Assembly: GCA_964373665.1 (NCBI GenBank)
Contig: CAYJVM010000001.1
Coordinates: forward strand, 93,325-157,324
Reading direction: 5' to 3'
Source of the DNA: an uncultured archaeon
Lineage (GTDB): Archaea; Aenigmatarchaeota; Aenigmatarchaeia; CG10238-14; SCSR01
Length of the DNA stretch: 64,000 nucleotides
Numbering within the stretch: the stretch's first letter is position 1; each line of letters begins with the position of its first letter. A program made the translations under genes and the position numbers. Positions 5,955 to 60,752 of this stretch are shown here, in pieces. The notes below the pieces were generated by a model. The model searched no databases. It was not told where the DNA came from and saw only the letters and a list, made by a program, of their open reading frames with translations.

Positions 5955-7502
5955 ATGAAGTGGAAATCCTTCAAGCACAACGGCGTCTACTTCCCTCCTG
6001 AATACCAGTGGAAAAAGCTGTCAGTCAAAATCAAAGCCGAGAAAGTGCAGCTGAATCAGGAGCAGGAGGAAATGCTCTATGCTTGGACGAAAAAAATCAA
6101 CACACCATACGTTCAAGACTCTGTTTTCCAGCAGAATTTTTTATCAGACCTAAAGAAAGTCCTTCCCAAGTTCCAGCATATCACAATGGATGACATTGAC
6201 CTCTCCGAAATTATCAAGTACCAGGAGAATGAAAAGAACCTGACTAGAGAAGAAAAGAAGATGCTGGCCGCAGAAAGAAAGAAGCAGAAAGAAGCGCTAA
6301 AGGAAAAATACGGCTATGTTGAGATAGACGGGAACAAGGCAGAAGCGGCAAACTGGATGGCAGAGCCTCCCGGAATTTTCATGGGTCGTGGCCAGCACCC
6401 GTTGAGAGGAAAATGGAAGAGAAGGATTATATCCGAGGATATAATATTAAATCTGAGCAAGGACGCGGCGGTTCCTGAAGGCAAGTGGAAAAAAGTCATC
6501 CATGGAAACGATTTCATGTGGATGGCATCGTGGCATGACGAGCTCACCGACAAGATGAAATATGTGTGGCCTAGCGAAGGCTCTGTTCTAAGGCAGAAGA
6601 GGGAGAAGGAAAAGTACGACAAGGCAATGTCCATCGACGACAACTTGGAGAAGATAAGAAAGCATATCCATGACGGTCTAAACTCAAAAGACGAAAAAAC
6701 AAGAAAAGTAGCTACAGTATGCTTCCTGATAGACAGGCTTGTAATGAGAGTGGGTGACGAAAAGGATGAGGACGAGGCTGACACTGTAGGAGCTTCGACG
6801 CTAAGGGTGGAGCATATAAAATTCAATCCCGATTCCATAGAATTCGATTTCCTTGGCAAGGACAGCGTCAGATGGGAGAAGAAACTGTTGTTCTCGGACG
6901 TTGACCCGACATTCGTGAAGAACATGAAAGAGTTTACCAACGGGAAAAAACCGGACAGCCTGATATTCGACGGCATAAGCTCGCGTGATGTCAACCAATT
7001 TTTCGGCAAGTGCATCAAAGGCCTGACGGCGAAAACATTCAGGACATACCACGCCACAAACACTCTGGTATCCTACCTGACATCTGTGAAAGTCAAATCT
7101 AGCGACACCGCGCAGCAGAAACTGTACCACGCAAAGATGGGCAACCTAGAGGTGGCGATAGCCTGCAATCACAAGAAGACGCCGCCGAAAACATGGGAGG
7201 AAACTTTCGCAAGGAAGCAGGAGAAACTAACAAAATGGATGAACACTAGTCCGAAGACAGAAAAGCAGGCGGAGAAGCTCAAGGAAAGGATAGAAAAATT
7301 GAAGATGGACATAGAGCTGTCGAAGAAAACTAAGGAATACAACCTGGGGACTTCGTTAAAGAACTATGTAGATCCGCGCGTTTACAAGTCATGGCTTGAC
7401 AAGATGGGGATAGACTGGACAAAACTATACACTTCAGCGTTGCAGAAAAAGTTTTCATGGGTCACCCGCTCAAAAGTCAAATGGGAAGACGTCGTGAGAT
7501 AG
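5955..7502 (+). CDS. DNA topoisomerase IB (eukaryote-type)
   Basis: FRTYHATNT and LGTSLKNYVDPRVY match the topoisomerase IB catalytic region (the active-site Tyr lies within LGTS.KNY.DPR). The lysine-rich N-terminal region is also typical. Confidence 0.85.
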   Translation: MKWKSFKHNGVYFPPEYQWKKLSVKIKAEKVQLNQEQEEMLYAWTKKINTPYVQDSVFQQNFLSDLKKVLPKFQHITMDDIDLSEIIKYQENEKNLTREEKKMLAAERKKQKEALKEKYGYVEIDGNKAEAANWMAEPPGIFMGRGQHPLRGKWKRRIISEDIILNLSKDAAVPEGKWKKVIHGNDFMWMASWHDELTDKMKYVWPSEGSVLRQKREKEKYDKAMSIDDNLEKIRKHIHDGLNSKDEKTRKVATVCFLIDRLVMRVGDEKDEDEADTVGASTLRVEHIKFNPDSIEFDFLGKDSVRWEKKLLFSDVDPTFVKNMKEFTNGKKPDSLIFDGISSRDVNQFFGKCIKGLTAKTFRTYHATNTLVSYLTSVKVKSSDTAQQKLYHAKMGNLEVAIACNHKKTPPKTWEETFARKQEKLTKWMNTSPKTEKQAEKLKERIEKLKMDIELSKKTKEYNLGTSLKNYVDPRVYKSWLDKMGIDWTKLYTSALQKKFSWVTRSKVKWEDVVR

Positions 7503-13507: not shown

Positions 13508-13620
13508 GCTCCCTTCGTCTAGCCCGGTCAAGGATACAGCCCTTTCGAGTTGTCTCAGAAAGGTTTGATGCAAGATGATAAAGCAAGGCTGTAACGCGGG
13601 TTCAAATCCCGCAGGGAGCA
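13508..13620 (+). tRNA. tRNA-Glu(TTC) with ~38-nt intron
   Basis: The acceptor stem is GCTCCCT/AGGGAGC, the D-loop is AGCCCGGTCAA, the anticodon stem is CAGCC/GGCTG with loop CTTTCG, and the T-arm is GCGGG-TTCAAAT-CCCGC. The intron sits next to the anticodon loop. Confidence 0.75.
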
Positions 13621-28481: not shown

Positions 28482-28787
28482 ATGGTCGGCACACCTCACA
28501 AATATGAAATATGGTTTTCGTACGACAGCGGGAAGGTTCATGAGACTGGAGCTTTGCATGTGCAGTCAAAGTCCGATGCTCCAGTAGACACGACCCAGAT
28601 AATCAGGAATGTCGAGAGATCGTTTAGGCCAGATATGCCGGCAGACGAGGTGACGGGCTTGCTATATAGTATGCTGGAAAACTATGGGCTTTACAGATGC
28701 AATGCACGCAAAGACAAGCCTTCATCATGCTGGCAAATGTGCGCAGATATTATCATTTACACAAAGGGAAAGACGGCATGGTTCTAG
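28482..28787 (+). CDS. hypothetical protein
   Basis: ORF only. Confidence 0.3.
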   Translation: MVGTPHKYEIWFSYDSGKVHETGALHVQSKSDAPVDTTQIIRNVERSFRPDMPADEVTGLLYSMLENYGLYRCNARKDKPSSCWQMCADIIIYTKGKTAWF

Positions 28788-28789
28788 TG

Positions 28790-29149
28790 TTAAAACTGCC
28801 ATGAGTGGTGTTCGATTTTTAACTCGCTTCTGTATTTTCCGTTCGTTTCCCTATACTCTAGTTCCATCCCCCTCAGAGCGTGCAGATCAGCCAAAGGAAG
28901 TTTGTACATTTGAGAAAGTTTATTGAGTTGGACGTCGTCAAAATCAGACAGTCTTTTAGGTTTGAGAGACGAATCGTGCAGAAGTAATACAAGTTCTCTT
29001 GATGGTTCACGAATTGTTGCACTAGACACATGGATCACAGATTGGTCAGCATACATTGCAACATATTTTATTTCACCCTTCTCACCAGGAGCCAGCTCTA
29101 TCACTGGAATGACAGAATCTCTGTGCCTTGTGTTGACCTGATATCTCAT
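28790..29149 (-). CDS. hypothetical protein
   Basis: ORF only. Confidence 0.3.
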   Translation of the reverse strand: MRYQVNTRHRDSVIPVIELAPGEKGEIKYVAMYADQSVIHVSSATIREPSRELVLLLHDSSLKPKRLSDFDDVQLNKLSQMYKLPLADLHALRGMELEYRETNGKYRSELKIEHHSWQF

Positions 29150-29222: not shown

Positions 29223-29789
29223 ATGAGAGTCATCGGTTTGACAGGGACGATAGGTGCGGGGAAGGACATTGTCAGGGATATGCTTGAAAAAAAGTTCAGC
29301 ATCAAGGCTGTCAGGCTGTCCGATCTGCTTGATACCAGCATCTTGAAGAAGAACAGGATTAAAATCACCCGCAGTATCCAGCAGGATTTAGGGGACGAGC
29401 TACGAGAAAAGTACGGAGAACATGTATTGGCGAAGATTGCCGTAGATTTCATGAAGCCTAATGACGCAATTAAAGTTATAGACGGTATAAGGAATCCGGG
29501 CGAGGTGGAGTTCCTGAAGAAACAGTTCGGGGAGAGTTTTATCCTTATTGCAGTCGACGCGTCGCGCGAAGTTAGGTTCCAGAGGGTTGTAGGAAGGGGT
29601 CGCGACAGTGATCCTATGCAATATGAGAAATTTGTGGCCATAGACGAACGGGATCATGGAGTGGACCAGCCAGGGTATGGTCAGCAAGTAGGCAGATGCA
29701 TCGAAATGGCCGACATTGTACTGAAGAACGAAGGCAGTATGGAAGAGTTTGTGAAGACTGTGGATGAGTTCATTAAACAAATCTCATAA
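29223..29789 (+). CDS. P-loop nucleotide/nucleoside kinase (dephospho-CoA-kinase/dNMP-kinase-like)
   Basis: Walker A motif GLTGTIGAGKD and an NMP-kinase-like LID region RGRDSDP. Confidence 0.55.
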   Translation: MRVIGLTGTIGAGKDIVRDMLEKKFSIKAVRLSDLLDTSILKKNRIKITRSIQQDLGDELREKYGEHVLAKIAVDFMKPNDAIKVIDGIRNPGEVEFLKKQFGESFILIAVDASREVRFQRVVGRGRDSDPMQYEKFVAIDERDHGVDQPGYGQQVGRCIEMADIVLKNEGSMEEFVKTVDEFIKQIS

Positions 29790-29829
29790 CTGATGAAGGT
29801 TTATATAGAAAAATCTTGATATTAGAATC

Positions 29830-30369
29830 ATGATTCTTGGGACAGATGTTCTGCTAAAGCTTGTGAAGGAACAAAATCTCGTGGAAAATCTTTCTGAAAG
29901 GGAGCTGACGAATCCTGAAGGCGCCGGCTTTGATTTAAGGTTAGGCGAGCTTTACATGATAACAGGAAAGGCACTGCTCGGTATCAGTGAGAGAGAGACA
30001 CCTGAGATAGAAAGCGTGGCCAAGTTCGATGACGGAAATAAAGTATTCCATACTATTAATCCGGGAGAGTTTTACCTTGCCAAGACGATTGAGAAGGTAA
30101 ACACACCGCAGGACATTACAATAAACTTCAAACCTAGGACGACAACTTTCAGGTCAGGTCTGCATATAAGGACGGGGAATGTCGCGCCCGGCTACAAAGG
30201 CGAGCTTACTTTTGCGATAAAGAACGACGGGCCGGTGCCTGTCACACTTGAGATGGGCGCGAGGATTGTTCATGCGCAGTTCCATCTTGTCGAAGGTAAT
30301 GTTAATTCTTATCGCGGCCAATGGCAAGGCGGGAGAGTAACGAGCGAGGGGAAAGAAAGGCAACTCTAA
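29830..30369 (+). CDS. dCTP deaminase/dUTPase-superfamily protein (divergent paralog)
   Basis: NPEGAGFDLRLGE and the following beta-rich core align motif-for-motif with the bona fide Dcd at 33925-34497. Confidence 0.6.
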   Translation: MILGTDVLLKLVKEQNLVENLSERELTNPEGAGFDLRLGELYMITGKALLGISERETPEIESVAKFDDGNKVFHTINPGEFYLAKTIEKVNTPQDITINFKPRTTTFRSGLHIRTGNVAPGYKGELTFAIKNDGPVPVTLEMGARIVHAQFHLVEGNVNSYRGQWQGGRVTSEGKERQL

Positions 30370-30554
30370 TAGGAAGTTCACTTCTTCAGGTATTTGTGCT
30401 CTTCGGCAAGTTTTCTAAGCAATTTTCTATCTTCCTTTATGAACTTTCTCGCAATTCTTATCACATTGTCTCTTACCATATTATTTCCCATGAAAATATT
30501 TAGCGGGGATAAAGAAAACTGTTATAAAGTTTCAAACATACCATTTCTAGTACT

Positions 30555-32315
30555 ATGAGCTACACAACTGTAATAAATGGGCTGGAGCTTTACAAGCATT
30601 CGGAATTCCCTGTAGTCATCGGCAATCCTAAGAGTAACCTGGCTCTGTGTGTCGTATGGCAGGATGCTGATAGAATACTCAATTTCCACCCCGAGTTCAA
30701 GGAAAAGTTCGCATTAATAGGCAATCTACGCTCTCCTTTCGGCGTCAACATCATCCTTTACAATCTCGCTCTTAATCCCCAGATAAGACACGTCGTCATA
30801 TGGGGCCCGGACAAGCTGAGCAACACGAACATAGGCCTTGCAGGAAAGAACGCCCTCATCAGCCTGTGGAGGAATGGTATTGACAGTGAGAAGCAGATAA
30901 TAGATACTCCATTCAAAATTGTCGAGGAAATAGACAGCACGGTTGTCCCGATAATTTTAAAGAACGTGCAGGTTCACGAGTCAAGCTCCCAGCAGCAGCT
31001 GGATTTGAACTCATTGCCAACTTTGCCAGATGATAGATATATGGATGCGATCATGTTTCCGGAATTCGTTGTGAAGGCGCCTGAGACGTTCCCTTCTGAA
31101 GGCTATACGTATCCGATAAGGGAGAAGAAAGGCGCGGATGCATTCTTGTCACTGCTCCACACGGTATGGAAGTACGGGCAAAAGTCGCCGATAGACAAGG
31201 ACGGGGAGGAATTGAAGGAGATAAGGGGCGCGATTGTCGTGATTGAAGGAGAAGACCCGGAGAATGTTCACTTGCCTGACTGGCTGCTTAATGCGAAAGC
31301 ACTTGGAATTTCCAAGGAAAGCTTGGACAACTACTATCAGACGCAGTTTTCGCCGGAATTATACAGGAAGGAAATTTTCAACGGGATAACTAAATTCGAG
31401 AGGCCTCGAGACTATTCATATCTTTATGCCGAACTGATGTATGCATTCCCGCGTCCGGAGGAACTGGACAACACTGTGAAGAAGCTTTTCAAGAAAGGAG
31501 GTTATGATGCTGCAAAAAGCTTCATCGTGATCAATTCAAAGCTCGACGGAGATGCGACGCAGGATGTCGTGGACAAAGTCGACCTCATTGAAATGCCGGA
31601 TGAGAAGAAAGTTGAAGTATTATTGGAAGGGCTGATTCCGGCTACTGACCAGATACAGAACGTCATCGACAGGATAAAGCGCAAGGATGTGGACTTGGAC
31701 AAGGAAGTAGTCCTTTGGGATGTCCGATACCACAGCAGGCTGGAAAGCGGAAGGCCGTGCCTGCTCAAGTTCTCCTTCACCGTTAGGAACGGCAAGGTTG
31801 ACGTGCATGTTTTTGTCAGGAGCCATGACATCGCGCAGGCATGGTTTTTCAATTTCTATGGGATAGCGAAATTGCTTGGCAGTGTTGCAAAGGAGACTGG
31901 ACATATGCCAGGGTATGTTATCATGGAATCGGAATCGGCGCACTTTTATCAGAGGGACTGGGAAACTGTTAAGAAGCTGTTGGAGGAACAAATTGATAAT
32001 AAGCAAATTAGGATGTACTTTGATCCTGAACTTGATTCGGATCCGCGCGGCGTTGTTAATATAGCAGTGGTTGATGGCAGCATAAAGATGAAGCTGCAGG
32101 ATTTGAAGACAGGTGATCTCTTGTTCGAAACTGAAGGAAAGACTGCAAAGGAACTAATGTACAAAATCAAGCACTTTCAGTTGATTTCTCGTACAGACCA
32201 CGCTGCTTTCGTAGGTTCGGAATTAGCCAAGGCGGAGATGTGTATGAAACTTGGGATAGAATACAAGTATGACAATCCTATCGAATTGCCTAGCGGAGAA
32301 AGGGTTGTAAGCTAG
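30555..32315 (+). CDS. 586-aa fusion of an unknown N-terminal domain with a thymidylate synthase (ThyA)-fold C-terminal domain
   Basis: RPCLLKFSFTVRNGKVDVHVFVRSHDIAQAWFFNFYGIAKLL...ESESAHFY matches the ThyA active-site region (PCH..QFYV...LSCQLYQRS.D..LG.PFNI.SY.LL........HIY), including the nucleophile Cys. Confidence 0.6.
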   Translation: MSYTTVINGLELYKHSEFPVVIGNPKSNLALCVVWQDADRILNFHPEFKEKFALIGNLRSPFGVNIILYNLALNPQIRHVVIWGPDKLSNTNIGLAGKNALISLWRNGIDSEKQIIDTPFKIVEEIDSTVVPIILKNVQVHESSSQQQLDLNSLPTLPDDRYMDAIMFPEFVVKAPETFPSEGYTYPIREKKGADAFLSLLHTVWKYGQKSPIDKDGEELKEIRGAIVVIEGEDPENVHLPDWLLNAKALGISKESLDNYYQTQFSPELYRKEIFNGITKFERPRDYSYLYAELMYAFPRPEELDNTVKKLFKKGGYDAAKSFIVINSKLDGDATQDVVDKVDLIEMPDEKKVEVLLEGLIPATDQIQNVIDRIKRKDVDLDKEVVLWDVRYHSRLESGRPCLLKFSFTVRNGKVDVHVFVRSHDIAQAWFFNFYGIAKLLGSVAKETGHMPGYVIMESESAHFYQRDWETVKKLLEEQIDNKQIRMYFDPELDSDPRGVVNIAVVDGSIKMKLQDLKTGDLLFETEGKTAKELMYKIKHFQLISRTDHAAFVGSELAKAEMCMKLGIEYKYDNPIELPSGERVVS

Positions 32316-32360
32316 TTTTCGATAAAAACATTTAAATGCAAACATTAACATCATATTAAT

Positions 32361-32597
32361 ATGGTAAAAGCGATCATAGACATAAATAATGAGACAAATA
32401 AATTGTTGAATGTTCTCAAGGCCGAGTACGGGCTTAAAGACAAGTCCGAGGCTATCAACAAGATGGCTCATGAGTTCAAGAGATTTGTAAGGGTTGAGCC
32501 GGAAGTCAGACCAGAATACATAAGAAAATTGAAGAGGATTCAAAAACAAAAAAGAATAAGGGTAGACGATTTCGCCAAAGAATTCGGATTGAAATAG
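32361..32597 (+). CDS. type II antitoxin (RHH/CopG-like)
   Basis: A 78-aa ORF 1 nt upstream of the toxin gene. It is charged and helical. Confidence 0.45.
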   Translation: MVKAIIDINNETNKLLNVLKAEYGLKDKSEAINKMAHEFKRFVRVEPEVRPEYIRKLKRIQKQKRIRVDDFAKEFGLK

Positions 32598-32858
32598 ATG
32601 TATTTACTAGACTTGAGGGACAAAGTAAAAGAAAAATTCCATAAAATGGAGAAGAAAGAAAAGAAACAACTGGCTATAATAAATAAGAAGGTCCTACAGA
32701 TAAGAGAGGATCCACACAGATTCAAACCGTTAAGCAACGTGATGAAAAGGATAAGAAGGGTTCATATAGACAAGAGCTTTGTGCTCACATATTCAATCGA
32801 TGAGGCAAACAAAACTGTAATTCTTGAAGACTATGACCACCATGATAATATATATTGA
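32598..32858 (+). CDS. RelE/ParE (YoeB-like) family toxin
   Basis: REDPHRFKPL...IDKSFVLTYSIDEANKTVILEDYDHHDNIY matches the RelE-fold C-terminal pattern. Confidence 0.55.
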   Translation: MYLLDLRDKVKEKFHKMEKKEKKQLAIINKKVLQIREDPHRFKPLSNVMKRIRRVHIDKSFVLTYSIDEANKTVILEDYDHHDNIY

Positions 32859-32876
32859 AAGCAAGACAAAATTCGT

Positions 32877-33869
32877 ATGTTGTTTATGATAGTAAATGAT
32901 ATCACATATGGGAAGTTTGAAATTGACGGTGTCTTGGAAGAGCTGGTGAAATCCAAACCCCTACAAAGGCTCAAGAAAGTTCAGCAGTATGGAATACCTC
33001 CGGAATTCTACACATTTCCAGGATTTTCCCGATATGACCATTCAATAGGCGTCATGCTTCTGCTGAAGAAGCTGAATGCAAGTGTCGAAGAGCAAGCCAC
33101 TGGTCTGTTGCATGACGTCTCACACACGGCGTTTTCGCATGTTGTGGATTGGGTGTTAAACAATAGGCTTAAAGAAGATTACCATGATTCGATACAAAAG
33201 GACGTTGTCATGACATCTGGAATAGGGGACATTCTTGTAGAATTTGGTTTGAAAGTAGATAGGATAACTGACAAAATGAATTTCTCCCTTCTTGAGAGGG
33301 ACGAACCTGATTTGTGCGCTGACAGAGTTGATTATGCCCTGAAAGAGTTCCACTATTGGGCCGATCCGATGAACGTAAAGACTTTCGTAGATAATCTAAC
33401 ATCAGTTGGAAACAAGATAGTGTTCAAATCCAAAAATGTCGCAGAAATGTTTGGCAAGAGCTTCATGAAGTGCCAAAATGAGCATTGGGGAGGAGCGCAA
33501 GCCACAGTTAGATATCAATTGTTTTCAAAAGTATTGCTCATAGCACTGGAAAACGGCATAATAAAAATGGAAGATTTGAATAACGATGACGATTTTGTGA
33601 TGAAAAAATTAGTCAAATCTAACGAGGTGCGAATCAAGAGAATATTTAAGATTCTATCAAGCGACCTTAAGATCGAAATTGATGAAAAGACACCCCAATT
33701 GAAATTAAGGAAAAAGTTTAGATATGTTGATCCGTGGTACATGGAAAACAATGAAGTTTATAGGTTGAGCGAACAAGACGAAGAATATGAAAATTTCTTG
33801 GAGATGAATAGAGAATTAAATAAAAGGGGGATTAACGTTAGGCTGTCTGTTTCCATAGAAAATCTTTGA
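32877..33869 (+). CDS. HD-domain phosphohydrolase (dNTP triphosphohydrolase-like)
   Basis: The HD-domain metal ligands are present: YDHSIGV, LLHDVSHTAFSH and DRVDY. Confidence 0.65.
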   Translation: MLFMIVNDITYGKFEIDGVLEELVKSKPLQRLKKVQQYGIPPEFYTFPGFSRYDHSIGVMLLLKKLNASVEEQATGLLHDVSHTAFSHVVDWVLNNRLKEDYHDSIQKDVVMTSGIGDILVEFGLKVDRITDKMNFSLLERDEPDLCADRVDYALKEFHYWADPMNVKTFVDNLTSVGNKIVFKSKNVAEMFGKSFMKCQNEHWGGAQATVRYQLFSKVLLIALENGIIKMEDLNNDDDFVMKKLVKSNEVRIKRIFKILSSDLKIEIDEKTPQLKLRKKFRYVDPWYMENNEVYRLSEQDEEYENFLEMNRELNKRGINVRLSVSIENL

Positions 33870-33924
33870 ATTTGTCGTGGTGTTTAACGCCTGTAATTGT
33901 CATTTAACTAATTATCCAATCAAT

Positions 33925-34497
33925 TCATTTCCATCGAAAATCTTTGAAGATCTTACTCTCGTCCGACCCTTCCTGATTCTGATATTTCTCATCACCTCTT
34001 TTTCCATACGCCCTTTCCGGTGCGGATGTCAGTTTCGCAAGAGTAAGCTTTGCCACCCTCATTCCGGGATAAAGGGCAACAGGCATCTTTCCTATGTTGG
34101 CGATCTCCAAAACCAATATGCCTTCCCAACCAGGATTTATCCCTGCGGATGTTGTGTGCACGCTTATTCCCAATCTACCCAAGCTCGACCGCCCGTCAAT
34201 CAACCCCACCAGCTCCTCCGGTATTTTTATGTATTCCTTTACTGACGCAAGCACGAACTCGTCAGGGTGTATGATGAACGGCTTGTTGTCGTCTATAGTG
34301 ACAAGCTCCGTATAATTCTCCAGGGGCTGCTTAGGGTCTATGTACGGCACTGAGATGACTTTGAATATTCGGAACTCGTTTCCAAGGCGCAGATCTATAC
34401 CAGAAGGCTGTATCTGCGTGTCAGCGTCTTCCATGTTGTCTATCCTAAGCTTTCCGGAAGAAATGCATTCCTTGATGTCCCTGTCCGAAAGAATCAT
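33925..34497 (-). CDS. dcd: dCTP deaminase
   Basis: MILSDRDI, GIDLRLG, GRSSLGRLGISVH and PGWEG form the textbook Dcd pattern. Confidence 0.85.
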   Translation of the reverse strand: MILSDRDIKECISSGKLRIDNMEDADTQIQPSGIDLRLGNEFRIFKVISVPYIDPKQPLENYTELVTIDDNKPFIIHPDEFVLASVKEYIKIPEELVGLIDGRSSLGRLGISVHTTSAGINPGWEGILVLEIANIGKMPVALYPGMRVAKLTLAKLTSAPERAYGKRGDEKYQNQEGSDESKIFKDFRWK

Positions 34498-34527: not shown

Positions 34528-35187
34528 TTAAATTCTATCCTCGAATGCATTGTTCACAAAGTCCGGAGTAATTTCCCTTACAGAGTTCACAACGAAATCA
34601 GCATTCTCCATAGGTTTTCCATCGCGGGAAATTGCGACCACCTTTATTCCAGCATTCTTCGCAGACAAAATTCCAGTTGCAGAATCTTCCACCGCTATAG
34701 CATGATCATTTGAGACACCTAGACCCTCCAGGCACTTGACATACAAACCCGGATCAGGCTTTTTGTAGTCAAAGTCTGTTATCGATGAAATGAAATCGAA
34801 AAACTTGTAGAGACCATAGTATTCCAATGTCTTTTGGATTATGTCTTTCTGGCTGCCGGAGCATATTGCCAGTGAGAATCCCGCATTTTTAAGGGAAGCT
34901 ATAACATCTCTTACGCCGTCGAAGGGTTTTGAATACTTGGGTATATCCGCAAGAAAAGCACCACGCCTCTTCTTCACAAGTCCTTTGATGTCAAGCGACT
35001 GCAATTTATACTCATCCCGAATGGATTCGAGGAATTGAGTTGTTGTCCTGCCTATCTTGAACTTGATGTCGCCATCCTTCAAGTAAATGTTTTGCCCGGC
35101 CATCTCTTCCCTGAAGAACTCGAACATCGCCACTTCCGTGTTCACAATAGTGCCGTCAAAGTCGAAAATCACAGCTCGCTGCATCAT
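34528..35187 (-). CDS. HAD-superfamily hydrolase (beta-phosphoglucomutase/phosphatase-like)
   Basis: HAD motif I is AVIFDFDGTIVNTE, and the motif II and III patterns are also present. Confidence 0.7.
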   Translation of the reverse strand: MMQRAVIFDFDGTIVNTEVAMFEFFREEMAGQNIYLKDGDIKFKIGRTTTQFLESIRDEYKLQSLDIKGLVKKRRGAFLADIPKYSKPFDGVRDVIASLKNAGFSLAICSGSQKDIIQKTLEYYGLYKFFDFISSITDFDYKKPDPGLYVKCLEGLGVSNDHAIAVEDSATGILSAKNAGIKVVAISRDGKPMENADFVVNSVREITPDFVNNAFEDRI

Positions 35188-37354: not shown

Positions 37355-38815
37355 TCAACTTTTGACGGAATGTCTTACGCTTTCCCAATCTACGACATCC
37401 AGTGCTCTCAGCATTTCCATGCTTGGAAGAACATAGTCAGATGTGACATCAACTAGGACATTTCCGTGGTGGTCATTCGGATTCGGGACTGAAATGCTTC
37501 TTATTCTGCCACCATATCGGCCGTTAAAATCGCTAATATCATCCTCTTTCCATTCGTGGAATAGTCGTCCTCTCCTTTCAATCTGCCTTGATATATCGGT
37601 CAGAAATAGTGCGCAGTTGGTTATTAGCGCATACTCTCTGTCTCTTGGGCTGTAATAGTTTTCTATCTTTGGATTCGGATTGGCCGTTTGCATGAAGTAT
37701 CTTGCACCACCTCGGACATCTACGCCTGTCAAGTAAACATCTATGCCAGTTTCAACCCCCATTCCAGTGGCCAAATGCATATGTCGAGTCAAATCTACAA
37801 CACCATCCCCAACTGTTAACTTACCCGATAACAAACGCTCACCGCTTAAAGGCCAACCAAGTGTTCCCAAAAGGGTCGTAAGTTTAACCATATCATCGTC
37901 TTCCGAGCTGGCGCATATCAGGTTATTTGCGGCGAACCAAGGCTCGTTGTTCCTGCCTTCACCAGTTTTCAACAAATTAACACCATGAACGTCTCCTACT
38001 GGATATGCTAGTGGTATCGCCAAATGCTCCAATGCATGATATTCGGGATGTTGGCCGTTTCTTCGCGAGTGACCTGGATTTACTATGTCAGTATCATGCA
38101 TAACCAAGGATGTGTCATATAGATTCATTGTGGATTCGAGTGCAACAAGACCTGCGTATACAGTCATGCCTTTCGAGCCTCTTGGAGGTACGGGAAACTT
38201 TGGAGGTACAATCTCCAACCTTTTCAACTGTGCCCAATCAACATACCTCAAAACTTCTTTCTGGTCCGCGACTCTTGCACCTGTTCTTCTAGCCTCATAA
38301 GTGGCGGCTTCTTGTGTTCCAGCGTCAATTGCCAAGACATTTTCGATGCCTACAAGTTCTCCAGCGTATCTTATTACATCGGCGATCGTATTTGACTCCC
38401 CCGCAAAAGGCAGAAGCACTCTTACAGAACGCGATCTAAGCGTGTCTCTCGCCCTTTCAATAATGAAATCGTTGTTTCCGTCAAAAATGTCCACATTATA
38501 TCTCCCACCATTATCAGATACAGGGGAATTATAAATTCCACAAGAAGCCAAGGATTCCCTAACGGAGACCAATTCCTCCGGACCTGTGGTGTGGTAGACT
38601 GGTCTTCCCTCTTGACTCGTATCTATGTAAATGCCGCCTTGGTGATTTCCTCTTCTATAGTCTACCAAAGCTTGCAACCATCTGCCTAGTTCAGAAGGAG
38701 GATTTTCATAAGGCGCAAAACCTTTATGAGAATCAAAGAAGCGCCTTTCGCTAGATGTCATAAGAGGGACACCCGAATAAGATTTATTTACCATGTAATT
38801 TTGTTTACTCAACAT
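37355..38815 (-). CDS. mannosyl-3-phosphoglycerate synthase-like glycosyltransferase (GT55-like)
   Basis: The blocks VLLPFAGESNT, GSKGMTVYAGLVALE and MHDTDIVNPG parallel the MpgS motifs (IVPMKNE, GKGEGMLVGLLLAK, FVDADNYIPG). Confidence 0.5.
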   Translation of the reverse strand: MLSKQNYMVNKSYSGVPLMTSSERRFFDSHKGFAPYENPPSELGRWLQALVDYRRGNHQGGIYIDTSQEGRPVYHTTGPEELVSVRESLASCGIYNSPVSDNGGRYNVDIFDGNNDFIIERARDTLRSRSVRVLLPFAGESNTIADVIRYAGELVGIENVLAIDAGTQEAATYEARRTGARVADQKEVLRYVDWAQLKRLEIVPPKFPVPPRGSKGMTVYAGLVALESTMNLYDTSLVMHDTDIVNPGHSRRNGQHPEYHALEHLAIPLAYPVGDVHGVNLLKTGEGRNNEPWFAANNLICASSEDDDMVKLTTLLGTLGWPLSGERLLSGKLTVGDGVVDLTRHMHLATGMGVETGIDVYLTGVDVRGGARYFMQTANPNPKIENYYSPRDREYALITNCALFLTDISRQIERRGRLFHEWKEDDISDFNGRYGGRIRSISVPNPNDHHGNVLVDVTSDYVLPSMEMLRALDVVDWESVRHSVKS

Positions 38816-39590: not shown

Positions 39591-42500
39591 TTATGCCGCA
39601 TCTATGTCAGGTGCTCTTCCCCTATTCTGCTCAAGATACTTCATCAGTGCAGGTATGTGCTCAGGGGATATGCCTATGCCCGTCTGCCTTCCCATCTGGC
39701 TGTAAGCTTGCCTAACTTCAGTCTCAAGTCTATTCAAATATCTCACGCCATATTTGTCAAAGCCGAAATCGAATTGAATTATCTTTCCGCTGTCGTCGAA
39801 ATAGGCAGGAGTGTGTTCAAACCTTCCTTCATGCTTCTCCTTGATTTCGGATGGTATCTGGCTGTCCAGTACGCCTACATTGCAGTAAATCATTGTAGGT
39901 CCATCAATGCTGTATGCAGAGAATGGCCACACCTTGCCGCTTCTAGTTCTGTCGCCTCTTATTATAAGCGGCATTAGAGCAGTGTTCCATAGTTGGAAGG
40001 AATAAGGAACCTTTTGCTCTCCTTCCTTCAAAGTAGATCTGTAAACGTCAACGGTTCTTTGGAACTCCTTGTTTCCTCTTAATTTTGCCATGTCTTCTTC
40101 TGTCTTTCCTGCATGAGAATAATCCACATCAGTGAATCCTAAAGCGTCGTTAATCGCGACTACTTGATTCAAGTAGCCTTGGTATGCATCAGGATATCTT
40201 GCGGCTCTGTCCGTAGAGTCTCTTGCAACCAGATTCTTGGTTCCGTCTACAACTAGTATAACAGGTTGGTCGTTTGCTATTCTTGTTCTGTAACCTTTGA
40301 AAAGCCCGCTGTTTAAGACCTCTTTGTTGTTATGGCTTTCGGTCGACCCGACTTTAACTCCGATTATATAATCGACCCCCAGTGTATCATCGTCTGTTAG
40401 GGGCGCCACTGGAAGATACCCATAGCTTAGGTTCGGTGCGATAACTACATCCATACCAAGTTCTTGCGCTCTTACCTTTACACTTCTAACATAATCTTCA
40501 AGCAGCCGCACCTCGTATGCTGCACATTCGACTTCGAACTTGGAAAGCGCGTCGAAAGGTTCGACATCCGAATCTATGCTGAAAATCGTTTCGTACGCGG
40601 TGTATGTGATGTGGTTTTTCAAAAATCTTTTCACTTTCTCGTGGTCTACTATGTCCCTGAATCTCGTGTATTCAAGGTTCCTATGTAGCTCGTTTTCCGG
40701 ATCGAAGTTTCCTTCTCCAAATCCATTTAGTTCAGTTTTCCAGTCGGCAACAATTTTCCTCGGACTTTCTGCAGCCGACAAGCTGTGCATCAAATAAGTC
40801 GTGGGGATAATACCTTTTCTTTCCATTGATACAAAATATCTATGCAAGTCTCTGAATGTAGAGGCGCCAGTTTCCACTTCCCCGAACAGCTCTTCCCATC
40901 CGTCCAATGTGGAAAGTTCGTATGCTGTCCTGATGGCAGTTTTTGGCCTCTCGGACATATAGCCTTGGTAATGCTCGAATGCTGCCTCATGGACGCGCAG
41001 ACTTGAAACAAACTTGCCGAGAACATTAGTTTCATACGGATCCAAACCGTTTCTTAGAGCCTCTCTCACAAAAAGGTTGGTTGTCTGCTGACTAGCACCT
41101 TCAGTTGCGGCTACCAAGTTGCGAATGCTGGACGTTGCTGGATAGTTATCGAATGGGAAAATCCTCGCTACTTCCTCGTCACCAAGCGCCCTTAAATACG
41201 GCAACATATAACTTCTCGCTGAAGGTTTTTCCATCACCGCATGTATAACTTTCTGCTGCTCCTTTCTAACTTGTTCTTCAAACCTTTCTGGGTACGCAAT
41301 ATCTCCGACATCCGTTAGAAACGCTTCAAATTCTCTGAGCTCCTGTAGAAATGTCGGAAATCTATAGCTATGGTCTGTGATTAGCTTGTATCTGCGGTTT
41401 CCTATCATACCTCTGACATTAAAGCCGAACTGACCATTCCAATATTCTTGAACTCTCTCAGATCCTATTTCCCTTAAATAATCGAACGCCCACTCGCTGA
41501 TCGGCTCCATGCTCCCGCCGAAATGTAAAATGCTATTGGCCTCGTCCATTACGGCCTCTGGATTTCTAGACCCTTGCGCTATACTTTCAACTTCTTCCAT
41601 ATACTCTGCAATACCTCGCAAGTGGTTAGCAACAGCTTCAACTCCAGAAAACCCTTCAATGCCGTAAGCAATTTTTTGATCAAACATATCGCCATATTTT
41701 CTTATGACAGGCAGTTTGTCTTCCAACCCGAGTGAAGATGCAATTGCAGTCACTACACGGTCTCTGGTTGAATCCTTCTCTTCATCTGGAACATAAGTTG
41801 CATACGGCAGCAAATTCACTGCCAGCCCCAATGCAAAATACCTTTCCCTATCACTGCCATGAGTCATATAGTGCGATGCCATATTGAAAAGCGCCTCTCT
41901 GAATCCTGGGTTGTAACTGGGGTAATCCCAGTGGCTATCGTCGCGAATTACAGCACCTTCCTTAACCATTCGGACAGCATCCATCATGCCAGGCACCTTC
42001 AAGCCTTCAAGATATTTCAACTCTTCTCCATTCAACGAACCGATGAATTCTTCTGCCTTGCCTGAAAACGGCGCCCTAGTCCACTGCCACCTCCCTCTCC
42101 AGAGATTCATCACCGCATAAGGCAGATGCTCGCCTTGTTTGAATCGGTAAACTTTGTAACCTAACCTGCCGAATTCATCCCCTATGTGCTCACCTGATGC
42201 GGGTGGTACAACAAGCAGTCTGCTCCAAAGCTCTTCAAGTACATACCTATCGAATCCGGCAAGAGCATCTTCGCCGAACAATGCCTTCATTTGATCGTCA
42301 GATCTAGCAACTTCCCAGCTGTCAATGTCAAGAGAATTCACATCGACAGGTGTACCTACCCTTTGTTTAAGTTTGTCGTATCGGCTGGTAAATTCTACAC
42401 CAGGATCATATCTGGACATCTTATAGGTTTGCCTTAGCAAACTTACAACATCTGCGAGGCTTTCCGGTATTTCTACCCTATGTGAAAATCTGTATAACGA

Positions 42501-43538
42501 GTCTACAATATCTTGGAATATTTCGTCATGCCTTCTTCCATCATGACTAACATTCGGTAGATAACGAGTTACAAAATCTCGCAATCCATAAGGCAGCGCT
42601 TGAACTCTTTCATTCAAGCTGTCCAGCTGTTCGATTTCTTGTGGATACTTAAATCTAAAACTCAGCCAGTCAGCCTTTGGCAACTGGAAATGCATACCGG
42701 CAAAGACGAGTCTTACAGCTTCATCTACATCTTCTTTCTCATATCTTCTATCTTCTCTTTCATAGTTCCCATTTTTTATAACATCTGCAAAATCAGGTAA
42801 AACTTTCTTTTCGATATAACCATTCAACAGGGAACTTCTCTGAGAATCAGTCAACTTTGGCGATTCTCCTGTATTTTCCAATACACTCAATTGCGCATCA
42901 TATTCCGTCACCAGCCGCGATACAAGAATTGTGTAAAGTTCACGCTCCAGACTTTGGATATCAAAGCTTCTGTCTGAATAATAAGAACTGTACCAGCCCA
43001 TTTTTCCTGCTCTGCGAGTCGCAGCAAACAGCGCGTCTATTTTGACATTAAGAGAATCGACTTGCATCTGGTAACCTGCGGGGCGCGTGCGCCCAAGTTC
43101 TCTTGTTTCGTTGATCAAACGCTCAACCCTTTCATATACATCCCATTCGGCAGCGACCCCCACTTCTTCATAAATTCTGCGAACAGCAACTTCTTTTGCG
43201 TGCTTACCTCGGCTGGCTTTCGCCTTTGCAACAGCATTCATCCGCTTCAAGTATTCTAGCTTTTGCCGCATAGCTCCCGCTCCATCTGCTAAATCATCAA
43301 TACCTATAGTAGGATCAAACATGCGTCTTAGTGCCATCCTATCTTTCAAATAGGCCAACTCGAAGCATATGTATTTGTCAGCGCCATTGATTTCATCATT
43401 CCACGACTTTAGTACTTCAGCTATCTCATCGGGACTCGTTGATTCTGGATTAAAATCGGCCTGTAGTTCCGGCTCGGAAAATAATGCATTCGCTTCCTGG
43501 TATAATCTCTTTAAAATTTCATCACTCATCATTCCCAC
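39591..43538 (-). CDS. very large (1315 aa) protein of unknown function
   Basis: An uninterrupted 3.9-kb ORF with ~50% GC and codon usage consistent with its neighbours. No motif I recognise. Confidence 0.6.
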   Translation of the reverse strand: MGMMSDEILKRLYQEANALFSEPELQADFNPESTSPDEIAEVLKSWNDEINGADKYICFELAYLKDRMALRRMFDPTIGIDDLADGAGAMRQKLEYLKRMNAVAKAKASRGKHAKEVAVRRIYEEVGVAAEWDVYERVERLINETRELGRTRPAGYQMQVDSLNVKIDALFAATRRAGKMGWYSSYYSDRSFDIQSLERELYTILVSRLVTEYDAQLSVLENTGESPKLTDSQRSSLLNGYIEKKVLPDFADVIKNGNYEREDRRYEKEDVDEAVRLVFAGMHFQLPKADWLSFRFKYPQEIEQLDSLNERVQALPYGLRDFVTRYLPNVSHDGRRHDEIFQDIVDSLYRFSHRVEIPESLADVVSLLRQTYKMSRYDPGVEFTSRYDKLKQRVGTPVDVNSLDIDSWEVARSDDQMKALFGEDALAGFDRYVLEELWSRLLVVPPASGEHIGDEFGRLGYKVYRFKQGEHLPYAVMNLWRGRWQWTRAPFSGKAEEFIGSLNGEELKYLEGLKVPGMMDAVRMVKEGAVIRDDSHWDYPSYNPGFREALFNMASHYMTHGSDRERYFALGLAVNLLPYATYVPDEEKDSTRDRVVTAIASSLGLEDKLPVIRKYGDMFDQKIAYGIEGFSGVEAVANHLRGIAEYMEEVESIAQGSRNPEAVMDEANSILHFGGSMEPISEWAFDYLREIGSERVQEYWNGQFGFNVRGMIGNRRYKLITDHSYRFPTFLQELREFEAFLTDVGDIAYPERFEEQVRKEQQKVIHAVMEKPSARSYMLPYLRALGDEEVARIFPFDNYPATSSIRNLVAATEGASQQTTNLFVREALRNGLDPYETNVLGKFVSSLRVHEAAFEHYQGYMSERPKTAIRTAYELSTLDGWEELFGEVETGASTFRDLHRYFVSMERKGIIPTTYLMHSLSAAESPRKIVADWKTELNGFGEGNFDPENELHRNLEYTRFRDIVDHEKVKRFLKNHITYTAYETIFSIDSDVEPFDALSKFEVECAAYEVRLLEDYVRSVKVRAQELGMDVVIAPNLSYGYLPVAPLTDDDTLGVDYIIGVKVGSTESHNNKEVLNSGLFKGYRTRIANDQPVILVVDGTKNLVARDSTDRAARYPDAYQGYLNQVVAINDALGFTDVDYSHAGKTEEDMAKLRGNKEFQRTVDVYRSTLKEGEQKVPYSFQLWNTALMPLIIRGDRTRSGKVWPFSAYSIDGPTMIYCNVGVLDSQIPSEIKEKHEGRFEHTPAYFDDSGKIIQFDFGFDKYGVRYLNRLETEVRQAYSQMGRQTGIGISPEHIPALMKYLEQNRGRAPDIDAA

Positions 43539-43674: not shown

Positions 43675-44694
43675 TCAACCTTCATAGAATCTGTTGTAAA
43701 GCTGCCTATATTCTTGGGACGGAATCACCAATCTACCATTATCGACAATCAGCCTTCCATTGTGTACAAATCTGTAAGGACGGCTATACGGTGGGTTGAA
43801 ACCAAAGTGTCTAGTTTCACCATCAACTTCAATAACAGCTTCTCCTGTTGGAATAAAATATGCCATCCCTACACCACAATCTCCTATTATGTGAAGATAT
43901 GCATCACCCATTCCGTAAGCAGGTCGCCATCCAGTCGATCCGTTCAATGTCACCCTACCACCTTCCAAATTCTTTGCAAAAAAATCCCCAACATTGCCGT
44001 TGATAACTAACTCGCCGCTTTGTCTACCGCTGGCCAGATTGTCAAGCAGATGGGCTTTCCTTCGATAGTCATCATAAGTACCGCCTATACCCCACACTTT
44101 ATTCCAAGAATCCCCTACTCTGGGGAACATTGATTCCCTAGTAACCCCATATCTCTTGAATAAATTTCCCGCCGCGCGATCAGCATAAAACGACGCACCT
44201 AAAAACTGGGGATGCCGAAGTGCAAGTCTGCTCAATGATTCTAATCCACGCTCAACCGCCTCATATACGATCTGAGGTACATTGCGTGTAGGCTCCCAAA
44301 AGTGATGGGGAAAAAATGAGGGGTTTTTCGTAGTCTCAAGCTCAATTTTCTCCGTACCTCGGTCAAAAAGGCGACAAGTGAGTCCAGATACATACCAACC
44401 AAGTGCTGGAAGATTTTCGTGATTTTCAAATCTTCCCAGCTCAGATACAAGCCTATTTACATCGTCTTGAGTGTAGACTTCCAAATTGTCTATCATGCTT
44501 CTCGCCAATAAAGATGGAGTTACTGAAACTAGCATATCGCGTTCATGAATTTCCCTACGCCCTACATTAAAATCATTCATCATCTGAATGTTTTGGTTTT
44601 CGGTATGTCTATCTTGTGCAAACTTTCGGGTTAAAAATGCAATTGCATAGTCCTGTATCATTGAATAAGACATTTTCTCACCAACTCCTATCAC
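43675..44694 (-). CDS. protein with GXGXG beta-helix domain (glutamate-synthase C-terminal/FwdC-like)
   Basis: GELVINGNVGDFFAKNLEGGRVTLNGSTGWRPAYGMGDAYLHIIGDCGVGMAY is a typical GXGXG-repeat region. Confidence 0.5.
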   Translation of the reverse strand: MIGVGEKMSYSMIQDYAIAFLTRKFAQDRHTENQNIQMMNDFNVGRREIHERDMLVSVTPSLLARSMIDNLEVYTQDDVNRLVSELGRFENHENLPALGWYVSGLTCRLFDRGTEKIELETTKNPSFFPHHFWEPTRNVPQIVYEAVERGLESLSRLALRHPQFLGASFYADRAAGNLFKRYGVTRESMFPRVGDSWNKVWGIGGTYDDYRRKAHLLDNLASGRQSGELVINGNVGDFFAKNLEGGRVTLNGSTGWRPAYGMGDAYLHIIGDCGVGMAYFIPTGEAVIEVDGETRHFGFNPPYSRPYRFVHNGRLIVDNGRLVIPSQEYRQLYNRFYEG

Positions 44695-46746: not shown

Positions 46747-47856
46747 TCAGTTCAAATATTTCTTTAACTCCTCAACCTTGTCGGTCATCTCCCAAGTGAA
46801 CTCAGGTTCATTCCTTCCAAAGTGCCCGTAAGCCGCAGTCTTTTCATAAATAGGCCTTTTCAATTTCAAATGCTCAATAATAGCTTTAGGCCTCATGTCG
46901 AACGTTTTCATAATAATTTCTTCAATTTTATGGTCAGGGATTTTCCCAGTCCCGAAAGTATTGACATAGACAGAAACAGGTCTTGCGATTCCGATTGCGT
47001 AAGCAATTTGCAATTCACACCTATCAGCAAGACCAGCTGCAACGATGTTCTTGGCTATATATCTACCCATATAAGCGGCAGACCTGTCGACCTTGCTTGC
47101 GTCCTTGCCGGAAAAACAGCCTCCTCCGTGCCTTCCCCAACCTCCATAAGTGTCGACTATGATTTTCCTTCCTGTAAGTCCAGTGTCAGCAGGGGGTCCT
47201 CCTTTCACAAACTTTCCAGTCGGGTTTATGTGAATGATTGTGCCATCGTCTATCCAGTCTTTGCAGACAGGCTTGATAACATTCTCCAGTATCTCCTTCC
47301 TAAGCTGCTCCATTGGTATGTCTGCGTGGTGTGCAGATACAACGACAGTATGCAGTCTCTTCGGTTTTCCATTTTCATATTCTATGGTCACCTGAGACTT
47401 GCCATCCGGCCTCAACCATTTAATTTCTCCGGAACGCCTTACTTCAGAAAGCTTCATCACAAGCTTGTGCGCAAGAACGATAGGGAGCGGCATGAATTCT
47501 GACGTCTCGTTTGTAGCATACGCCATCATTAATCCTTGATCACCAGCACCCTGTTCCTTGTCATCGCCTTGACCCTCAGTGACACCCTGTGAAATATCTG
47601 GACTTTGCTCATGCAACGACACCAGGACAGAGCAGTCGTCATAATTAAAACCGTATTCAGGGTTGTCATAGCCAATCCTCTTTAAGACTTTCCTCGCGAC
47701 TCCCTGCGCGTCGATATAGCCTTTCGTTGTAACCTCACCCGCTATCATTATTAGGCCTGTTGTCGTCAAAGTTTCTACAGCAACTCTAGAATTAGGATCC
47801 TGCTTGATCAATTCGTCTAATATAGCGTCGGAGATTTGGTCACAAATTTTGGACAC
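46747..47856 (-). CDS. metK: S-adenosylmethionine synthetase (bacterial/eukaryal MetK type)
   Basis: [22 protein letters not shown] and [20 protein letters not shown] are the MetK signature blocks. Confidence 0.9.
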
Positions 47857-54509: not shown

Positions 54510-54635
54510 GGGCCCGTAGCTCAGCATGGTAGAGCAGCTGATGCCAAGTTGAAGCTTTTAACCATGTGTGAAAAAGCATTGATTCCCAGATGAAAGGAAA
54601 CCAGTTGGTCGAGGGTTCAAATCCCTCCGGGCCCA
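54510..54635 (+). tRNA. tRNA-Gly(GCC) with ~50-nt intron (Trp not fully excluded)
   Basis: The acceptor stem is GGGCCCG/CGGGCCC, the D-arm is GCTC-AGCATGGTA-GAGC, the anticodon loop is ATGCCAA with U33, the T-arm is GAGGG-TTCAAAT-CCCTC, and the discriminator is A. Confidence 0.65.
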
Positions 54636-60548: not shown

Positions 60549-60633
60549 GGGCCCATAGCTCAGCATGGTAGAGCAGCTCGCTCTTAATTTTGGGGTTACG
60601 AGACGGTCAAGGGTTCGAATCCCTTTGGGCCCA
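60549..60633 (+). tRNA. tRNA-Lys(CTT) with ~11-nt intron
   Basis: The acceptor stem is GGGCCCA/TGGGCCC, the D-arm is GCTC-AGCATGGTA-GAGC, the anticodon loop is CTCTTAA, and the T-arm is AAGGG-TTCGAAT-CCCTT. Confidence 0.7.
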
Positions 60634-60752
60634 CTGCCGTTTGGGTTTGAAACCCCTTTAAGGACACTGAATCCGTACTTCGATGGGTCCGGAGACGGAC
60701 CGGCGTCGACAGGGCCAGCATTGGACTCTTCGGTTTCAGCGGAGGGTCTGCC

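Follow-up and report, generated by a model that had tools for sequence, protein, structure and literature searches.

Does a cluster of deoxypyrimidine-nucleotide genes in the chromosome of an uncultured archaeon serve ordinary thymidylate supply, or does it modify DNA in the manner of a phage? The question is raised by positions 29223-34497 of a 64-kb stretch of the source genome (hereafter the window), where a 586-aa protein built around the fold of the thymidylate synthase ThyA lies among a P-loop kinase, two proteins of the dCTP deaminase (Dcd)/dUTPase fold, a toxin-antitoxin pair and an HD-domain hydrolase. An earlier note, made from the sequence alone, had listed seven open reading frames (ORFs) here. 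All seven are present at the coordinates given there, and profile searches agree with the families that it had proposed. The note had seen in five of them the logic of a phage hypermodification pathway and had offered an unusual housekeeping route to dTMP as its fallback. Our results favour the second reading. With a probability of about 0.7, the region is a chromosomal housekeeping deoxypyrimidine cluster of a DPANN archaeon that has been split by a strain-specific insert.

The analysis establishes the identities and folds of the genes' products, the conservation of catalytic residues, synteny and the gene neighbourhoods in two domains of life. From these we infer a route in which all substrates and products, the specificity of the kinase, the activity of the divergent Dcd-fold paralogue and the role of the two extra domains of the fusion are predictions. 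Dcd (33925-34497, - strand) would deaminate dCTP to dUTP, and the Dcd-fold paralogue (29830-30369, +) would presumably convert dUTP to dUMP. The ThyA fusion (30555-32315, +) would methylate dUMP at C5 to give dTMP, using the covalent Cys mechanism of ThyA and a reduced pterin as one-carbon (C1) donor, in whose binding or retention the MtrA-fold and DUF4346 domains presumably assist. The UPF0200-type kinase (29223-29789, +) would phosphorylate a deoxynucleoside monophosphate (dNMP). Here this is probably the step from dTMP to dTDP, since no canonical thymidylate kinase gene (tmk) is in view in the Aenigmatarchaeota loci. The toxin pair and the HD gene between thyA and dcd would be a later insertion outside the pathway.

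Conservation of the cluster in archaea and bacteria

We compared the window with loci of about 20 kb from each relative. The same gene order is found in the window and in two Aenigmatarchaeota groundwater metagenome-assembled genomes (MAGs), JACPAE01 (locus L001) and JACPJU01 (locus L010). It runs from a Rieske-type gene and the ribosomal protein L10e gene (rpl10e) through the kinase, the Dcd-fold paralogue and the ThyA fusion to dcd on the opposite strand. The Rieske-type and L10e ORFs are putative, as they were assigned by our own reading of the sequence and not by a family search. Orthologues of the four core genes are 60-86% identical in these genomes: the kinase, at the same position, shares 68% identity with L001 and 60% with L010, the 179-aa Dcd-fold paralogue 86% and 84%, and the 190-aa Dcd 85% and 77%. 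Synteny among relatives, which the earlier note had named as an observation that would speak against DNA modification, is thus found in the two closest genomes.

Genes around the cluster are 60-88% identical to their counterparts in the same two MAGs, and the fusion, kinase and HD proteins have their closest relatives in MAGs of Candidatus Aenigmatarchaeota, Micrarchaeota and other DPANN lineages. The window organism is a DPANN archaeon, Aenigmatarchaeota-like, and does not belong to the Nitrososphaeria, where it had previously been placed.

A pattern scan of 185,579 species, with one genome per species, identified 47 fusion loci, comprising 11 of a long form, approximately 34 of a full-length short form and two fragments. 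The short form measures about 500 aa, is 27-36% identical and is mostly labelled Patescibacteria, with several sequences labelled only "bacterium" or "Mollicutes". The 11 long-form loci are labelled Aenigmatarchaeota, Micrarchaeota, unclassified archaeon, "Roizmanbacteria" or "Gammaproteobacteria", and we suspect that some of these labels are wrong. Four loci labelled Roizmanbacteria or Gammaproteobacteria (L007-L009 and L011) carry the long form otherwise seen in DPANN MAGs, which implies mislabelled bins, cross-domain gene transfer or both. Judging by the PBP1 gene next door, L011 is bacterial. No relative of the fusion was found in IMG/VR, and viral structure matches in BFVD span the ThyA core only (TMq <= 0.32), with no viral protein among them having the fusion architecture.

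Genes within 5 kb of each fusion were clustered and counted. Clustering places a canonical thymidylate kinase (PF02223, 2.7e-35) next to the fusion in 18 loci, and tblastn adds three more, for a total of roughly 21 of 34. Dcd or Dut-fold genes occur near the fusion in 16 loci besides the window, a UPF0200-type kinase in nine besides the window (seven of these in bacteria of the candidate phyla radiation, CPR) and a dCMP deaminase in six. Operons of the type tmk-thyA-dCMP deaminase-kinase-dut are present in L017, L020 and L040. Such tmk-linked operons are a signature of dTTP synthesis and constitute the strongest argument that the fusion makes dTMP. Six CPR loci (L018, L022, L023, L024, L027 and L037) encode an FNR-like NAD-binding oxidoreductase of about 224 aa (PF00175) directly downstream of the fusion, which may be its redox partner. 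As the same families recur beside the fusion in dozens of genomes from two domains of life, the grouping of nucleotide genes goes beyond chance.

Searches for Tmk (with the sequence from L026 as query), ThyX, FolA and a second ThyA returned none of them in the window or the DPANN loci; as these represent a small part of each genome, the result is not evidence of absence. In the same search, no folA was found near any fusion locus.

Predicted activities of the four core proteins

The fusion is an uncharacterised three-domain thymidylate-synthase variant that the scan located only in ultra-small archaea and bacteria. An exact-sequence look-up of the protein gave no match. An AlphaFold (AF2) model built with 51 homologues (pLDDT 89.3, pTM 0.84) consists of an N-terminal MtrA-fold domain (approximately aa 1-150; 30555-31004, +), a ThyA alpha/beta-fold catalytic core (approximately aa 175-495; 31077-32039, +) and a C-terminal PterinBD-DUF4346 domain (approximately aa 496-586; 32040-32315, +; 50.5 bits). 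The core passes the cut-off of Pfam family PF00303 (61.7 versus 24.3 bits), and in the long form only it holds a helical insert of about 55 aa (approximately aa 300-360). In the extra domains, C32, W35, N70, N74, W83, W105, D496, R498, H549 and E561 are invariant across two domains of life. Members of the family are already labelled "thymidylate synthase" in databases. Our literature search, in which some queries were poorly targeted, found no paper on the fusion or on the UPF0200/SSO1041 kinase.

The N-terminal domain has the Rossmann-type fold of MtrA and matches the Pfam MtrA family weakly (18.2 versus a cut-off of 25). In MtrA, His84 is the cobalt ligand and Glu54 its hydrogen-bond partner (PMC4915002). 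His84 aligns with L95 of the fusion, a position that is hydrophobic across the family, and Glu54 falls in a one-residue deletion. A cobalamin-dependent thymidylate synthase, a candidate prompted by the MtrA fold, was set aside as the main interpretation because both residues are missing. A structural search with the C-terminal domain gave no close and no recognisable ligand-binding relative. Elsewhere, DUF4346 is attached to MtrA-like and DHPS-like (MJ0301-type) proteins.

We aligned 51 members of the fusion family, 37 of the long form and 14 of the short form. The catalytic Cys C402 (E. coli C146), in a Pro-Cys motif with P401, is invariant (51/51), as are R422, D425, N433 and Y465 (E. coli R166, D169, N177 and Y209). 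S423 (S167) is Ser or Thr, and H463 (H207) is His in 50 of the 51. Among ThyA homologues, Asp at the N177 position gives the cytosine specificity of dCMP hydroxymethylases, and Asn at D169 is found in 5-hydroxy-dCMP synthases (PMC13326640). Neither signature residue is present in the fusion family, where N433 and D425 do not vary. By these criteria, the active site argues for a uracil substrate and against a dCMP hydroxymethylase or 5-hydroxy-dCMP synthase. Other departures from classical ThyA include H147 to Leu/Ile, Q165 to Val and C168 to His.

The two Dcd-fold proteins differ in their catalytic residues. The 190-aa Dcd, convergent to the other genes, is far above the equivalog cut-off of TIGR02274 (205.3 versus 92.8 bits) and has both the Ser-Arg motif (DGRSSLGRLG) and the catalytic Glu (LVLEIAN). 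It is most similar to the Dcd of M. tuberculosis (PDB 2qxx, 1.6e-47), which is bifunctional. At the DPG motif, the Asp conserved in Dcd and dUTPases is replaced by Asn (INPGW), both here and in the orthologues of L001 (14093-14665) and L010 (12074-12646), and this substitution might make the clade's Dcd a deaminase only. The 179-aa paralogue (PF22769, E = 7.6e-22) falls below both equivalog cut-offs (dCTP deaminase 80.7 versus 92.8; archaeal dUTPase 58.2 versus 130), and in the PDB it comes closest to 9ln0 and 8y1w, 155-aa chains without the Glu. The position equivalent to E. coli Glu138 is occupied by Ala. An exhaustive search yielded 112 full-length representatives of its subfamily among the best 150 matches; the catalytic Glu is present in none of them, and the position of the DPG Asp varies freely (A 22, D 22, S 21, N 14, H 13). 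Judged by these residues, the paralogue is not a deaminase, and it presumably handles dUTP. Since it is consistently placed between the kinase and thyA, it may contribute to the supply of dUMP.

The 188-aa kinase has the P-loop GTIGAGKD, passes the AAA_18 cut-off (34.3 versus 29.4 bits) and is homologous to PDB entries 3lw7/3h0k (UPF0200, SSO1041; E = 5e-16). It also matches the phage dNMP kinases of PHROG 139 over its full length (2.7e-11), the kinase domain of the PADLOC dCTPase model (6.5e-33) and the N-terminal half of NF041025 (1e-23). The family is present in many Aenigmatarchaeota MAGs. These matches suggest that the protein is probably a dNMP kinase.

Several observations weigh against a housekeeping route to dTMP. 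The fusion misses all NCBIfam thymidylate synthase equivalog cut-offs, including that of the methanogen-type model TIGR03283 (82.9 versus 174.55). Using hhalign, E. coli ThyA residues 106-241 alone align with the fusion, while the N-terminal half, including the folate-site residues E58, W80, W83 and Y94, is unalignable. The Arg pair R126/R127, which in ThyA comes from the partner subunit, is replaced by D382/K383 in all 37 long-form sequences, whereas RR is kept in all 14 of the short (CPR) form. The residue equivalent to L143 (G399 in the window) is Gly in 35 and Ser in two long-form sequences, and Glu in 13 and Gln in one of the short form. A bulky hydrophobic L143 is said to exclude water and to favour methyl over hydroxymethyl, and an acidic residue at this position has been linked with hydroxymethylation (PMC13326640). 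The non-hydrophobic state is one tied to hydroxymethylating homologues.

Some of the partner genes point the same way. The 179-aa paralogue has Ala at the DPG Asp (VAPGY) and is therefore without the residue essential for dUTPase activity. In two Patescibacteria genomes ThyX (PF02511, 5.5e-52) is encoded directly beside the fusion and tmk (L029, 8549-9253; L040, 1419-2465), so some carriers of the fusion have a second thymidylate synthase. CPR operons encode the kinase together with a canonical Tmk, so that it may act on a nucleotide other than dTMP. For a further thymidylate synthase beside the fusion, the analysis covered the 64 kb of the window and about 20 kb per relative. In L029, a truncated second tmk accompanies ThyX.

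The accessory insert, competing readings and the wider window

The intervals separating the four conserved genes behave as a hot spot for insertions and differ between genomes in the small accessory genes they hold. In the window (28482-29149 and 32361-33869), they contain two orphan ORFs, the toxin pair and the HD gene. The gaps of L001 (7920-8820, 9546-9911 and 11783-14059) hold a helix-turn-helix protein, a retropepsin-like protein, an S-adenosylhomocysteine (SAH) hydrolase and a PfkB kinase, and those of L010 (7330-8527, 9198-9563 and 11396-12022) hold membrane ORFs, a Fic/Doc toxin and an unknown 208-aa ORF. The SAH hydrolase and PfkB-family kinase adjoin the fusion not only in L001 (11783-14059) but also in L008 (6424-8668, labelled "Roizmanbacteria"); they are not found in the 64-kb window.

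The toxin pair consists of a 78-aa DUF2683 protein, the presumed antitoxin (32361-32597, +; PF10884, 27.9 bits versus a cut-off of 27), and an 86-aa YafQ/RelE/ParE-type toxin (32598-32858, +) whose gene starts on the base after the DUF2683 gene ends (32597/32598). The toxin matches TIGR00053 at 3e-15 (below the cut-off), TIGR02385 at 27.7 versus 27.9 and PF05016 at 23.4 versus 23. A small toxin of the RelE/YafQ/ParE family with an abutting small antitoxin gene upstream is the arrangement of a type II toxin-antitoxin system. The RelE-type pair reported earlier as wedged between the nucleotide genes is therefore genuine, as an accessory element that is missing from L001 and L010.

The 330-aa HD-domain phosphohydrolase that follows (32877-33869, +; PF01966, 24.6 bits) has a SAMHD1/COG1078-like N-terminal region. 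It resembles PDB entries 2hek (1.9e-8) and 2q14 (7e-7), with which its H...HD...D motifs align, and SAMHD1 (about 3e-5). Against the dGTPase equivalogs it scores 18 versus cut-offs of 393-494, and it is 40-200 aa shorter than characterised members of the SAMHD1/dGTPase type. The family has 4516 relatives at E <= 0.001, and the named ones among the top 120 listed are DPANN or CPR MAGs. The nearest non-self relative among the matches listed is 56% identical. No HD homologue was found in any of the 47 fusion-bearing loci, and in other Aenigmatarchaeota the family occurs in unrelated gene contexts. On these grounds the HD protein was rejected as a conserved partner of the cluster.

Neither the toxin pair nor the HD gene was found at the syntenic loci of L001 and L010, and the segment has a GC content of 0.34-0.40 versus 0.43-0.49 in its flanks. 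Both features point to a later, strain-specific insertion. Since the HD gene has no homologue in the 47 loci and the toxin pair is absent from L001 and L010, the conserved unit comprises four genes. The five-gene nucleotide cluster of the earlier note thus holds for the four genes that are conserved as a unit in L001 and L010, but not for the HD gene, the supposed dNTP-clearing member. PADLOC gave no defence assignment for the HD, toxin pair or Dcd proteins. When insertion scars were sought around the toxin pair and HD gene, the only candidate was a 21-nt direct repeat at the 3' ends of HD and dcd (33850-33870 and 33928-33948, 20/21 identical), and this does not bracket the cassette. At the end of the HD gene, the final codons repeat the opposite strand of the final dcd codons, 78 nt away.

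How do other explanations compare with the housekeeping cluster? In a phage-like hypermodification pathway, the fusion would hydroxymethylate dUMP (or dCMP), the modified dNMP would pass to the kinase for phosphorylation, and clearance of the canonical dNTP would fall to the Dcd-fold and HD proteins, resulting in DNA with a modified pyrimidine. The Gly or Glu/Gln in place of a bulky hydrophobic residue at the L143 position is compatible with this, given the link between an acidic residue and hydroxymethylation (PMC13326640), as is the resemblance of the kinase to the phage dNMP kinases of PHROG 139. ThyX in L029 and L040 would, in addition, free the fusion for another reaction. However, the invariant Asn at N177 and Asp at D169 exclude both cytosine-type signatures, no glycosyl-, amino- or other transferase and no DNA-modifying gene is present in 27-37 kb of the window, and viral relatives are lacking in IMG/VR and limited to core-only matches in BFVD. 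Moreover, about 21 CPR loci have a canonical thymidylate kinase gene next to that of the fusion, the core of the cluster keeps its chromosomal place beside rpl10e, and the HD gene does not recur as a partner. We consider hypermodification highly unlikely, and the synteny, tmk operons and uracil-type active site instead support what the earlier note had kept as its fallback. The accessory part, namely the toxin pair and the HD gene and perhaps the kinase, might alternatively be an antiviral nucleotide-depletion islet that landed in a nucleotide cluster. The kinase is in fact a conserved stand-alone gene of housekeeping type, without a deaminase domain and found in many Aenigmatarchaeota MAGs, even if, by PADLOC and NF041025, it is related to the kinase domain found in anti-phage dCTP deaminases. 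Similarly, the HD protein is in the SAMHD1/dGTPase superfamily but has no PADLOC match, and its very large family occurs as singletons in unrelated contexts. The low GC of the segment, its absence from relatives and the other toxins that fill the same gaps (Fic/Doc in L010) would fit an islet, which we nevertheless regard as quite unlikely.

A further possibility concerns the C1 donor. The fusion could make dTMP without classical free methylene-tetrahydrofolate if its extra domains held a C1 carrier, either a pterin or a corrinoid without the His ligand, and if a partner such as the FNR-like reductase recharged it. Symbionts probably unable to make folate, as we assume these to be, would be well served by such an enzyme, and no folA was seen near any locus. 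The invariant residues in both extra domains across two domains of life, the joining of DUF4346 to MtrA-like and DHPS-like (MJ0301-type) proteins elsewhere, the oxidoreductase directly downstream in six CPR loci and the altered residues near C5 (H147 to Leu/Ile, Q165 to Val, C168 to His) are all consistent with a bound carrier. We still think it unlikely, considering that the MtrA cobalt-ligand network (His84, Glu54) is absent, that the C-terminal domain has no recognisable ligand-binding relative, that the cofactor itself is a prediction and that the extra domains could instead be purely structural or regulatory. The broader proposition that the fusion is not a classical folate-dependent synthase, and either is a self-contained and possibly reductase-coupled enzyme with a bound pterin or corrinoid carrier or hydroxymethylates dUMP, is tentative and, in our view, unlikely. 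Hydroxymethylation of dUMP is considered here because of the non-hydrophobic L143 equivalent and the coexistence with ThyX in two genomes; if it were true, some carriers of the fusion would have 5-hydroxymethyluracil in their cellular DNA. A bound carrier, if true, would explain thymidylate synthesis in cofactor-scavenging ultra-small symbionts.

On the prevailing view, DPANN archaea and Patescibacteria rely on their hosts for nucleotides and cofactors, and how they secure thymidylate therefore matters for their biology. The cluster, ordinary in its pathway logic, brings together three uncharacterised components common to archaea and bacteria: a ThyA with MtrA-fold and DUF4346 domains, a large Dcd-fold subfamily without either classical catalytic residue and a stand-alone kinase related to the kinase domain of anti-phage dCTP deaminases. 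If the extra domains bind the C1 donor, the fusion would represent a third way of thymidylate synthesis beside ThyA with dihydrofolate reductase and ThyX. The locus also illustrates that a conserved housekeeping locus can serve as a landing pad for toxin modules.

Beyond dcd lies a 219-aa HAD-IA phosphatase (34528-35187, -; PF13419 at 5.4e-38). Pyrimidine nucleotidase models match it below threshold only, and distant homologues occur near the fusion in L001 and L008. It is a possible nucleotidase with weak membership in the cluster.

The wider window is an ordinary stretch of archaeal chromosome, with A-type ATPase subunits and tRNAs (Rfam, ARAGORN). A eukaryotic-type DNA topoisomerase IB is encoded at 5955-7502 (+; PF02919, PF01028 and PF14370, E down to 2e-67) and may have prompted the earlier assignment to the Nitrososphaeria. 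The SAM synthetase at 46747-47856 (-) has three S-AdoMet_synt domains (PF00438, PF02772 and PF02773) and an 88% identical orthologue in L010. We take this domain set to be the bacterial/eukaryotic MetK type and not the archaeal type, which, if right, would suggest horizontal acquisition. Three consecutive large ORFs of 1315, 486 and 339 aa (39591-43538, 37355-38815 and 43675-44694, all -) have no Pfam match at 1e-4. Rfam tRNA matches at 13508-13620 (113 nt) and 54510-54635 (126 nt), both on the + strand, were missed by ARAGORN. Given this and their lengths, these tRNAs probably contain introns. The ARAGORN call for the tRNA at 60549-60634 (+) has a four-base anticodon.

Comparison with known systems

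The kinase shows clear homology over its whole 188 aa to the kinase domain of the anti-phage dCTP deaminase (AvcD/DCD type) and to UPF0200 (SSO1041). Unlike the anti-phage protein, it stands alone without a deaminase domain, and in CPR operons it is a separate gene beside a dCMP deaminase of housekeeping type. A pair of Dcd-fold proteins, one a deaminase and the other of dUTPase type, is normal in archaea, an example being MJ0430/MJ1102 of M. jannaschii. The window resembles such pairs, including the Thermococcales dUTPase-type chains 9ln0/8y1w, in that one paralogue has the deaminase Glu and the other in the same genome does not. It differs in that both paralogues of the window clade have lost the DPG Asp, which is Asn in the 190-aa Dcd and Ala in the 179-aa protein.

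The T4 pathway, with gp42, the gp1 kinase and dCTPase, and the 5-hydroxy-dCMP synthases (RB69 gp48, PDB 9iqc) differ from the window in context, since the genes described here are chromosomal and syntenic, belong to a tmk-linked fusion family and are not accompanied by transferases. Compared with MtrA, the cobamide subunit of the methyl-H4MPT:CoM methyltransferase (PDB 5laa, 5l8x; PMC4915002), the fusion is without His84 and Glu54, and its domain is joined to an enzyme and not to a membrane anchor.

Classical ThyA of E. coli and phage T4 td (PDB 1tis, 6auj) aligns with aa 364-478 of the fusion at 24-30% identity, with C146, R166, S167, D169, N177, H207 and Y209 conserved. The window fusion departs from it at L143 (Gly), H147 (Leu), Q165 (Val), C168 (His) and R126/R127 (Asp/Lys) and has two extra domains. 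The best curated model for its core is methanogen-type ThyA (TIGR03283, MJ0757-like), at 2.1e-23 over aa 188-471, with which it shares the ThyA fold, the catalytic Cys and the R-S-x-D and N motifs. Methanogen-type thymidylate synthases are presumed to use a non-folate pterin. In contrast to these enzymes, the fusion adds an MtrA-fold domain, a DUF4346 domain and the insert of about 55 aa, and it is found in DPANN archaea and Patescibacteria instead of methanogens.

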